64,000 bases of DNA. Origin: Escherichia coli (GTDB lineage Bacteria; Pseudomonadota; Gammaproteobacteria; Enterobacterales; Enterobacteriaceae). The stretch lies in NCBI RefSeq assembly GCF_003334815.1, contig NZ_QOWO01000010.1. The stretch is one strand, 5' to 3'. The translations under genes and the position numbers were made by a program. Position 1 is the first letter of the stretch; each line of letters starts with the position of its first letter. Positions 1 through 5,910 of the stretch are shown one piece after another. Under the pieces are notes generated by a model. It did not search any database, was not told the DNA's origin, and was given only the letters and a program-made list of their open reading frames with translations.

Positions 1-61
1 CCGCTGTGGCTCTTGTATTATTGAAGATCTTTGTGAATACAAAGAGAAAGTTGACATCTGA
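1..61 (+). CDS. nth: endonuclease III, C-terminal end only (gene starts upstream of window)
   Basis: Frame 2 reads ...RCGSCIIEDLCEYKEKVDI then stop at 59-61; matches remembered Nth C-terminus with the Fe-S cysteine motif; synteny with dtpA downstream. Confidence 0.6.
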   Translation, partial: RCGSCIIEDLCEYKEKVDI

Positions 62-671
62 AGAAAAGGGGTAACACCGATTACCCCATTGATAACCTTT
101 CTTTATCCTCTTTTAAAACATCTTTTTAACGTCAATGATGCCATTGCTTAGCGTTATCATCAGGTAATCCGTTTGCGGATAACCAAAAATGCAGGTTAAT
201 TGTTTTTTTAATAGCGAAATTTTCTATTCATTCGTGATCAAGATCACGATGCTGTCGCAATGTAAAAACATTGCAAGAATCAGGTTAAAATCATTTAAAT
301 TTACACACGCAACAAATATTGACCTACAAAACATTACACTGGCTATTTTTCAGAAACTGGACTATCTCACTAGTAAAAACGCTAAATAGCAGAACATATC
401 GCCGTTAAGCCATCACCCCCCTCTCAGTGCAGTGAAAAAATCTGCCGTTACGTTTTTTGAAAAATTTAACGCTGGATAACATTTCCCGGAATGGTTGAAT
501 TCCCCGCCTCAGTTATATGTAACAGATTATTACAAAGGACTTGTCTGAAAGTGCAAGATAGTGAACATTACCTGCCGTTTCCCCTCCCACTATAACAATT
601 GCGCGTATGTTTTTTATACATAACGCGAGAAAGCACCCCCGTTAATATGGGATGTAAAAAAAGAGGTAAAA

Positions 672-2174
672 GTGTCCACTGCAAACCAAAAACCAACTGA
701 AAGCGTCAGTTTGAACGCTTTCAAACAACCGAAGGCGTTCTATCTCATCTTCTCGATTGAGTTATGGGAACGTTTTGGTTATTACGGCCTACAAGGAATT
801 ATGGCTGTTTACCTGGTTAAACAACTGGGTATGTCTGAAGCGGATTCAATCACCCTTTTCTCTTCCTTTAGTGCCCTGGTTTATGGTCTGGTCGCTATCG
901 GCGGCTGGTTAGGTGACAAGGTACTGGGTACTAAACGCGTAATTATGCTCGGCGCTATTGTGCTGGCGATTGGTTATGCTCTGGTTGCCTGGTCTGGTCA
1001 CGACGCCGGTATCGTTTATATGGGTATGGCGGCTATTGCGGTCGGTAACGGCCTGTTTAAAGCTAACCCGTCTTCTCTGCTTTCTACATGCTATGAGAAA
1101 AACGACCCGCGTCTGGACGGTGCATTCACCATGTACTACATGTCCGTCAACATCGGCTCTTTCTTCTCTATGATTGCTACGCCGTGGCTGGCCGCGAAAT
1201 ACGGCTGGAGTGTTGCGTTTGCGTTGAGCGTTGTAGGCCTGCTGATCACTATCGTTAACTTCGCCTTCTGCCAACGCTGGGTTAAACAGTACGGTTCAAA
1301 ACCAGACTTCGAGCCTATCAACTACCGTAACCTGCTGCTGACCATTATTGGTGTTGTGGCACTGATCGCTATCGCCACCTGGCTGCTGCACAATCAGGAA
1401 GTTGCGCGTATGGCGCTGGGCGTTGTTGCCTTCGGTATCGTGGTTATCTTCGGTAAAGAAGCCTTCGCGATGAAAGGTGCTGCGCGTCGTAAAATGATCG
1501 TTGCCTTCATCCTGATGCTCGAAGCCATTATCTTCTTCGTGCTGTACAGCCAGATGCCAACGTCACTGAACTTCTTTGCGATTCGTAACGTTGAGCACTC
1601 CATTCTGGGTCTGGCCGTAGAACCTGAGCAGTATCAGGCACTGAACCCGTTCTGGATCATCATCGGTAGTCCGATTCTGGCCGCTATCTATAACAAGATG
1701 GGCGATACCCTGCCGATGCCAACCAAGTTTGCAATCGGCATGGTGATGTGTTCTGGTGCGTTCCTGATTCTGCCGCTGGGTGCGAAATTCGCGTCTGACG
1801 CTGGTATCGTGTCTGTAAGCTGGCTGGTCGCAAGCTATGGCCTGCAGAGCATCGGGGAACTGATGATCTCTGGTCTGGGTCTGGCAATGGTTGCTCAACT
1901 CGTTCCGCAGCGTCTGATGGGCTTCATTATGGGTAGCTGGTTCCTGACCACTGCCGGTGCAAACCTGATTGGTGGTTATGTTGCGGGTATGATGGCTGTG
2001 CCGGATAACGTTACCGATCCGCTGATGTCACTGGAAGTCTATGGTCGCGTATTCTTGCAGATTGGTGTCGCTACTGCCGTTATTGCAGTACTGATGCTGC
2101 TGACCGCGCCGAAACTGCACCGCATGACGCAGGATGACGCTGCAGACAAAGCGGCGAAAGCAGCCGTAGCGTAA
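672..2174 (+). CDS. dtpA: dipeptide/tripeptide:H+ permease (POT/PTR2 family)
   Basis: 500-aa ORF, GTG start, [17 protein letters not shown]... recognised as DtpA (YdgR/TppB); multi-TM hydrophobic profile. Confidence 0.95.
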
Positions 2175-5253: not shown

Positions 5254-5910
5254 TCAGGGTGCAAGACGATCAATCTTCCACGCATCATTTTCACGCTGGT
5301 ACAAAAAGCGGTCATGCAGGCGATGCTCACCACCCTGCCAGAACTCAATCTGTTCAAGGCTGACGCGAAAACCGCCCCAAAAGCTCGGCAATGGCACTTC
5401 GCCCTGTTGAAACTTCTGCTTCAGCTCCAGGAATTTACTTTCAAGGATACCGCGGGCAGAAATGCGACTGGACTGCTTCGAAACCCATGCACCAATCTGG
5501 CTATCACGCGGGCGGCTATGAAAATATTTCATCACTTCGAGAGTCGAAAGTCGTTCTGCTTTACCGATCACCATCACCTGGCGCTCAAGGGTATGCCACG
5601 GGAACAGCAGGCTAACGCGCGGATTATTTTCGATTTGATGTGCTTTACGGCTGCCGAGGTTGGTGTAAAACACCATGCCTTTTTCGTCGTAATGTTTGAG
5701 TAAAACGATGCGCTGATAAGGCTGACCATGTTCATCCACGGTAGCGACCACCATCGCGGTAGGGTCCGCCAGTTTGGCTTCACAAGCCTGAGAGAGCCAA
5801 CGTTCAAAAAGGGTTAATGGATCGGCGGGAAGATCGCGGCGGCGTAACCCGCCTTTGGTGTATTCACGGCGCAGATGCGCGATTTGCTGCAATTCGTCGT
5901 TATCAGACAT
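5254..5910 (-). CDS. pdxH: pyridoxine/pyridoxamine 5-phosphate oxidase
   Basis: 218-aa [35 protein letters not shown]... recognised as PdxH. Confidence 0.95.

Follow-up and report, generated by a model that had tools for sequence, protein, structure and literature searches.

The promoters of ompF, ompC and the omrA/B genes share an OmpR-type tandem repeat with a 10-bp period, located just upstream of poor -35 and -10 elements, and ompF is repressed when OmpR is overproduced. The leaders of dppA and oppA are targets of the small RNA (sRNA) GcvB, which acts through CA-rich sites. These two genes belong to the same functional class as dtpA (aliases tppB and ydgR), whose product is the main proton-coupled di-/tripeptide permease of E. 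coli and a model of the human PepT. Yet another mode of control is represented by ilvIH, which, like gltBDF, is an Lrp nucleoprotein promoter. At gltBDF, Lrp acts together with CRP and IHF (PMC1784095).

The region upstream of dtpA resembles the OmpR-dependent promoters in the arrangement of the tandem repeat and the poor hexamers, in its repression by excess OmpR and in the loss of expression in an ompR mutant. In contrast to ompF, ompC and omrA/B, dtpA has a single proximal OmpR element, which is also a perfect palindrome, and the conserved upstream region is much longer and includes sites for other regulators. In this respect, dtpA is closer to ilvIH and gltBDF: the upstream region is likewise long and AT-rich, with several Lrp-like sites distributed over hundreds of base pairs and a CRP site next to the best match to the Lrp consensus; by analogy, the spacing of these sites may be phase-sensitive, and the logic of amino acid and peptide supply fits dtpA as well. 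However, the Lrp sites of dtpA are predicted, the strongest of them being as distant as -357, and the listed role of Lrp is that of a repressor. The spacer upstream of dtpA is a largely known regulatory region of a well-studied gene, and the additions reported here are incremental, namely the frozen spacing of the conserved blocks, the conservation of a distal CRP/Lrp pair and the covariation in a hairpin of the leader (hairpin 1). Altogether, we consider it likely that the spacer serves to control both the transcription and the translation of dtpA, that it harbors no separate gene, and that the array of sites within it depends on geometry.

The nth-dtpA spacer and its coding potential

The window analyzed here is a 64,000-nt (64-kb) stretch of E. 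coli DNA. Its bases 1-760 match K-12 with 100% identity, and positions 62-671 are the 610 bp that separate nth from dtpA in E. coli K-12 MG1655. The end of nth is at 1712158 and the start of dtpA at 1712769 in the K-12 sequence NC_000913.3, with no RefSeq feature between them (the window position is the NC_000913.3 position minus 1712097). The spacer is the longest of the 65 inter-feature gaps in the window (the runner-up is 454 bp, and the median is 92 bp), and its GC content is 0.369 (36.9%), compared to 0.501 for the whole window and 0.412 for the other intergenic regions that are 100 bp or longer. The preliminary description of this DNA, which noted an unusually long, AT-rich gap between the nth stop codon and the GTG start of dtpA, is accurate in this respect. 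An intact spacer is present in 5423-5424 of the 5426 complete E. coli genomes, and 1-3 genomes lack an intact copy. In one natural strain, E. coli GZ2408C (NZ_CM172481.1, locus L086), an IS66-family element (ISCro1, with tnpA, tnpB and transposase genes) is inserted at about position 273, that is, between the distal CRP/Lrp module and the dtpA promoter.

The comparative set consists of 80 dtpA loci from Enterobacteriaceae species. In all 80, nth is located upstream of dtpA, and in 70 the spacer is 570-638 bp long; the long spacer is not a peculiarity of E. coli. The Kosakonia spacers reach approximately 1175 bp because they contain an additional ORF for a 141-aa predicted membrane protein, encoded on the minus strand directly after nth. 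Despite this added gene next to nth, the 380-bp conserved module remains adjacent to dtpA. The features of the locus are listed in Table 1.

Table 1. Features of the nth-dtpA spacer and its flanks (window positions unless stated otherwise)
Feature	Position	Strand	Sequence	Remarks
nth stop codon	59-61		TGA	
nth-proximal part	62-190			poorly conserved, indel-rich; internal neutral control
Hairpin 3' of nth	68-87	+	GGGGTAA-cACCGa-TTACCCC	just 3' of the nth stop; from terminator scan
Block A1	192-200		CAGGTTAAT	near-invariant; followed by T7 run at 203-209; distal edge of fixed-spacing module
Candidate Lrp site (block A2)	212-226		TAGCGAAATTTTCTA	consensus match, directly beside CRP box
Conserved block	217-227		AAATTTTCTAT	from alignments
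CRP box	233-248		CGTGATCAAGATCACG	centre 240.5, ~-335 from dtpA TSS
Block B	331-403		ACATTACACTGG; ATTTTTCAGA (345-354); CTATaTCACT (362-371); AGCAGAACATATCGCC (388-403)	
Block C	430-444		CAGTGAAAAAAtCTG; conserved CAGTGAAAAAA (430-440)	weak Lrp-consensus match
Block D	462-484		AAATTTAACGCTggATAACATTT / AAATTTAACGCTnnATAACATTT	near-invariant
OmpR core	518-534		TGTAACAGATTATTACA	within ChIP-exo peak 500-559
dtpA core promoter (putative hexamers)	541-569	+	-35 TTGTCT (541-546); -10 AACATT (564-569)	17-bp spacer; weak -10
dtpA 5' leader	574-671	+		~97 nt; hairpin 1, hairpin 2, A-run, SD and GTG in this order
Leader 5' end	574-599	+		conserved, C-rich/CA-rich
Hairpin 1	602-627	+	CGCGTATGT / ACATaACGCG	bulged A
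Hairpin 2	638-651	+	CCCGU-UAAU-AUGGG	RNAalifold consensus helix; conserved palindrome
SD	663-666	+	GAGG	5 nt before GTG
dtpA start codon	672		GTG	
Extra 141-aa ORF, Kosakonia oryzendophytica	1835-2260 of locus L046	-		similar spacers in L049, L055, L057, L058, L060, L062, L073

The spacer includes an ORF at 189-389 (plus strand, ATG start, 66 aa), which the preliminary description considered to be non-coding while allowing that the spacer could hide an sRNA or a small ORF. The comparison across species bears out the former and speaks against the latter. The ATG of this ORF is absent from the alignments outside Escherichia, and none of the spacer ORFs has a start codon conserved across species. 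Conservation in the spacer shows no 3-nt periodicity (power ratio of 0.7-2.8, compared to 20-25 in the flanking coding ends of nth and dtpA), and an NCBIfam search with the spacer ORFs yields no match. The signatures of a small protein or a leader peptide, namely a conserved start and codon-periodic conservation, are thus missing from the spacer ORFs, and a hidden ORF is rejected.

An Rfam search of positions 62-671 retrieves no match, even at E <= 10. No 3' end is listed within or next to the spacer in the Term-seq tables, which cover three growth conditions, and neither a consensus RNA fold nor covariation is detected in the interval 186-575 on either strand. A literature search found no report that ties the spacer to an sRNA or a small protein. 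A structured sRNA in 186-575, on either strand, is rejected given the lack of an Rfam match and of a conserved fold, and the typical attributes of an intergenic sRNA (its own promoter, a terminator, a 3' end and conserved sequence or structure) are not found in the spacer. The absence of a consensus fold and of covariation in the upstream region also implies that the conservation acts at the DNA level; the conservation of the spacer is non-coding.

The first 130 bp past nth cannot be aligned across Enterobacteriaceae and vary in length, with a mean information content of 0.43 bits per column at 62-190 and indels relative to E. coli in 70 of the 71 sequences. The hairpin at 68-87 is the sole terminator-like hairpin within the spacer upstream of the transcription start site (TSS), and its T-run is on the minus strand only. 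It is retained with changed bases in E. albertii, and other genera carry unrelated hairpins in the same place; it is probably the terminator of the rsx-nth operon. The hairpin could also be part of an independent sRNA or small-protein gene, e.g., one expressed as a minus-strand transcript that ends there: read from 87 to 68 and followed by TTTTCTTC, it resembles a minus-strand intrinsic terminator, a minus-strand start specified by the hexamer TATTAA of E. coli (213-208, minus strand) would have CRP at about -41, and the spacer contains several short ORFs. However, the T-run, the hexamer and the sequence of 62-190 are not conserved, even in E. albertii or in other genera. The negative results of the Rfam, Term-seq and literature searches also count against such a gene, as does the lack of a conserved fold on either strand of 186-575, an interval that covers only the 5' end of the proposed minus-strand transcript, and the small-protein version further suffers from the lack of a conserved ORF start, codon periodicity or a family match. 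The specific combination of a minus-strand class II CRP promoter (TATTAA, 213-208) with the terminator at 87-68 was rejected, its parts being unconserved even in E. albertii and the Term-seq tables containing no matching end. An independent gene in the spacer is already largely refuted and, in our assessment, extremely improbable.

Core promoter, distal regulator sites and their spacing

An activating OmpR ChIP-exo peak has been mapped to 1710621-1710680 of NC_000913.2 (window 500-559), centred at -46.5 (PMC5438342 supplement), and the expression of a lacZ fusion with the dtpA segment from -201 to +15 is strongly reduced in an ompR deletion and repressed by excess OmpR (PMC5175337). The OmpR core within this peak combines a 10-bp direct repeat (TAACA/TTACA) with the palindrome TGTAA-N7-TTACA, which is present in 100% of the species. 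The OmpR half-site consensus is xxxACAxxxx, in tandem at 10 bp, and the dtpA sequence can be read as two such half-sites, TGTAACAGAT and TATTACAAAG (518-537), with ACA at a 10-bp interval that is invariant across genera. All the attributes of an OmpR-activated sigma-70 promoter, i.e., in vivo binding by the -35 element, dependence on ompR and tandem half-sites, are therefore found at dtpA, in agreement with the OmpR regulation assumed in the preliminary description. The palindrome at 518-534 also fits the T-N11-A box of LysR-type regulators.

The hexamers TTGTCT and AACATT are the putative -35 and -10 elements of dtpA, an assignment made from sequence. The -10 block, GATAGTGAACATTAC, is invariant across species, and the TTG of the -35 element is conserved. 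The OmpR and GadX ChIP-exo tables, from which the TSS was back-calculated, imply a start at 574-576 (about 574-577 in round terms) and hence a leader of approximately 97 nt; this locus is absent from the TSS tables of Kim 2012. A consensus promoter scan of window positions 1-900 detects 0 promoter-like sites, compared to 1.9 expected, and thus misses the dtpA promoter, as would be anticipated if this promoter depends on an activator. An A-to-T substitution next to the -10 element, which recurred in three long-term stationary-phase (starved) cultures, increases the dtpA mRNA about 23-fold, an effect that fits the weakness of AACATT.

Upstream of the OmpR site, a repressing GadX ChIP-exo peak (1710534-1710554 of NC_000913.2, window 413-433) is located at about -151 from the TSS (PMC4918353 supplement). 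YdcI, a LysR-type regulator, also binds the dtpA intergenic region according to ChIP-exo, and a secondary regulator table for dtpA lists phospho-OmpR as an activator and Leu-Lrp and GadX as repressors. Genomic SELEX for cAMP-CRP, an in vitro method, selected the nth>/>tppB spacer, with the CRP box at about 1.71036 Mb. This box is a conserved palindrome: in 52 of the 67 species outside Escherichia, the aligned site departs from TGTGA-N6-TCACA by no more than 2 mismatches, and the background frequency of such sites is 0%. Being both SELEX-selected and conserved, it qualifies as a sequence-specific cAMP-CRP site. The Crp ChIP-exo table lists only the end of the nth operon at this locus.

The best Lrp candidate, at 212-226, is the only match with 1 mismatch in the 64-kb window to YAGHAWATTWTDCTR, which we take to be the Lrp SELEX consensus. 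At the aligned position, matches with at most 3 mismatches are found in 54 of the 67 non-Escherichia species, with a background of 0.7%. Given the constant spacing of the conserved blocks (see below), the candidate Lrp/CRP pair occupies fixed positions, -357 and -335, across species. Weaker Lrp-like matches at 327-341, 430-444 and 457-471 coincide with conserved blocks; the one in block C has at most 3 mismatches in 35 of the 67 species, and the conservation of block B is 0.7-0.94 per 10 nt. A putative sigma-54 promoter (TGGCTA-N5-TCAG, 340-353) was rejected, being off consensus and not conserved. In most genera (loci L022-L082), a TGTTA-N6-TGTT direct repeat is found at the position aligned to 261-275 and is degenerate in Escherichia and Salmonella. 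It presumably resembles an ArcA box and may be linked to the anaerobic induction of tppB that was reportedly seen in older Salmonella work.

The preliminary description also predicted multiple regulator sites in the spacer, a prediction that would fail if nothing were found beyond a proximal promoter. This is not the case because the evidence for OmpR (500-559), GadX (413-433), CRP (233-248), YdcI and Lrp, the last one represented by the Leu-Lrp entry and the consensus match, falls within the spacer.

The location of the CRP box, centred about 335 bp upstream of the known TSS, differs from the class I and class II positions (-41.5, -61.5, -72.5 and -92.5) and is too distant for the standard contacts. 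The scan and the alignments reveal no conserved promoter elements at a suitable distance from the box on either strand. A near-consensus, conserved CRP site that is out of reach of the mapped TSS might be taken to indicate a second, CRP-activated dtpA promoter at about 280-310, with a leader of approximately 370-390 nt, in which case blocks B-D would act in part at the RNA level or as roadblocks; E. coli indeed has an extended -10-like element, TGcAAGAAT, at 272-280. This element, however, would put CRP at about -46 rather than at -41.5 or -61.5 and is out of register in other genera, and the interval 280-330, where the promoter would have to be located, is the least conserved part of the 192-571 module. 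Furthermore, there is no sigma-70-like site in the scan, no conserved RNA structure in 186-575 and no 3' end within a 5'-UTR in the Term-seq tables. A second promoter of this kind thus appears unlikely, and a distal DNA-level module that acts on the OmpR-dependent promoter is the preferred reading of the CRP box.

The most distinctive property of this module is its geometry. The alignment contains hardly any gaps between about position 192 and position 671, where it shows discrete conserved blocks, and the leader and the 130 bp proximal to nth vary in length. The blocks between 192 and 571 hold their mutual spacing to within 1 bp in about 80 Enterobacteriaceae species, as measured in an alignment-free manner from fuzzy block matches. 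The distance between the OmpR block and the -10 block is 39 bp in each of 78 loci, and that between block D and the OmpR block is 56 bp in 77 of 79. The CRP box is found 323-324 bp from the -10 block in 59 of 77 loci and block A1 363-365 bp from it in 65 of 78; the loci that do not conform in these two distances look like spurious fuzzy matches. Block B is separated from the neighbouring blocks by 43 bp in 53 loci and by 42 bp in 60 loci. The distance from the -10 block to the start codon, that is, across the leader, is variable, with 110-117 bp over all loci. Given that the distances between the blocks are fixed although the intervening sequence has diverged, the bound proteins can be inferred to act together.

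The distal blocks could, alternatively, be generic 'chromosome-shaping' sites for nucleoid proteins and CRP, or else affect the formation of the 3' end of nth/rsx. Many CRP sites identified by SELEX or ChIP have no detectable regulatory output, the spacer is AT-rich, and the proximal 201 bp suffice for OmpR-dependent expression. Nevertheless, the blocks keep an exact distance to the -10 element of dtpA and not to nth, and in Kosakonia they stay beside dtpA despite the gene inserted after nth; moreover, generic binding to AT-rich DNA would conserve neither specific bases nor a spacing precise to 1 bp in different genera. We regard a generic role of the blocks as highly unlikely and a role in the control of dtpA as the better account of their conservation.

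The dtpA leader

The preliminary description anticipated a long leader in the spacer; the leader is indeed structured, but its length, about 97 nt with the TSS at 574-577, is moderate. Hairpin 1 folds at the same position in all 57 distinct orthologous segments, with a mean dG of -11.2 kcal/mol and a mean z of -2.3 (z < -1 in 56 of the 57), and the sequences of the stem differ between genera. In a plain MAFFT alignment, 80.9% of the cells in the stem are paired, compared to 34-44% after a shift of the partners by 1-3 columns; 28 cells carry double changes, compared to 13.8 expected from shuffles, and the covariation score is reached by 0 of 500 shuffles. There is, accordingly, good evidence that hairpin 1 is a conserved RNA stem-loop with compensatory changes across genera. 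Hairpin 2 is near-invariant, with 97.6% of the cells paired, and one of its pairs varies between GU, GC and AU.

No U-tract is found downstream of either hairpin, the leader (574-671) has no Rfam match at E <= 10, and the Term-seq tables report no premature 3' ends and no Rho-termination region for dtpA. The leader therefore shows neither of the hallmarks of known cis-regulatory leaders, a match to an RNA family or a terminator/antiterminator pair with a U-tract. Control of mRNA stability or of translation initiation is the role that we favour for the hairpins, judging from their structure and place. The fold of the whole leader is no more stable than that of shuffled sequence (z = -0.63). The minimum free energy fold pairs CCUC (584-587) with the GAGG of the SD (663-666); this candidate anti-SD pairing was rejected in view of the whole-leader z of -0.63, and it lacks covariation evidence because both sides are invariant.

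Similarly to dppA and oppA, dtpA has a leader of about 100 nt whose 5' end carries a conserved single-stranded C/A-rich sequence, CACUAUAACAAU. Unlike in these genes, however, the predicted duplex between GcvB and the dtpA leader is not significant when crude duplex energies are compared with those of shuffled sequences (p = 0.15 for R1 and p = 0.05 for R2), and this pairing was rejected; the dtpA leader also matches no Rfam family. A literature search retrieved no report of a GcvB-dtpA interaction in E. coli.

Two observations concern the dtpA gene itself. Codons 9-18 (697-724) contain a perfect 8-bp inverted repeat, GAAAGCGT...ACGCTTTC, a minus-strand match of the terminator scan that might fold into an mRNA hairpin near the start codon; a CRP-like palindrome with 2 mismatches, at 710-725, overlaps this repeat. 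Between the dtpA stop codon and gstA (2145-2231), sub-threshold Rfam matches to sroB (31.8 bits, with a gathering score of 44) and STnc240 are detected, which most likely reflect an intrinsic terminator, GCCGCTAAC...GTTAGCGGC followed by a T-run.

Proposed integration of signals at dtpA and the use of the spacer

These observations are best compatible with the following scheme for the control of dtpA. A weak sigma-70 promoter, TTGTCT-17-AACATT, would be driven by OmpR bound at 518-534 and would give rise to the leader of about 97 nt, in which two hairpins precede a strong SD and the GTG. Further signals would be integrated by the array of protein-binding DNA blocks that spans about 380 bp (192-571). 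Within this array, GadX at about -151 would convey the acid signal, the Lrp-type site (-357) and the CRP box (-335), placed side by side, would convey amino acid and carbon status, and the remaining conserved blocks may bind further factors, YdcI being one candidate. The activity of the OmpR-dependent promoter would be set by a nucleoprotein complex in which the bound proteins cooperate in a manner that depends on geometry. In its likeliest form, Lrp oligomers might bridge or wrap the region, aided by a bend that CRP induces, and the intervening DNA would hold GadX and possibly YdcI. The distal module is dispensable for basal activity, given that the fusion that extends only to -201 is already active in an OmpR-dependent manner, and the tolerance of insertions in the spacer, both in the natural ISCro1 strain and in engineered strains, argues against a cooperative array.

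A stronger version of this scheme, in which 192-571 is an enhanceosome-like switch whose CRP-Lrp pair contacts the promoter by wrapping or looping and hairpin 1 is an uncatalogued cis-regulatory RNA, is possible but doubtful. If this is true, dtpA would have a bacterial promoter of unusually long range that responds to multiple signals. The gain from the present analysis is modest, in that scattered genome-scale data are merged into one map of the dtpA spacer, which raises the question why the conserved CRP/Lrp pair is held at the fixed positions -335 and -357.

The map also has a bearing on the experimental use of the locus. Large insertions and promoter-library assays are widely directed to the nth-ydgR spacer, which serves as a standard 'safe' landing pad in the chromosome (PMC2847246; bioRxiv 10.1101/207332). 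Reporters placed there sit beside active regulator-binding sites, and the insertions may separate the conserved CRP, Lrp and GadX sites from dtpA. The strength of the dtpA promoter is under selection, as indicated by the up-mutation that swept repeatedly in long-term starved cultures, and the apparently empty 610 bp upstream of this gene consist, at least from position 192 on, of regulatory DNA under constraint.
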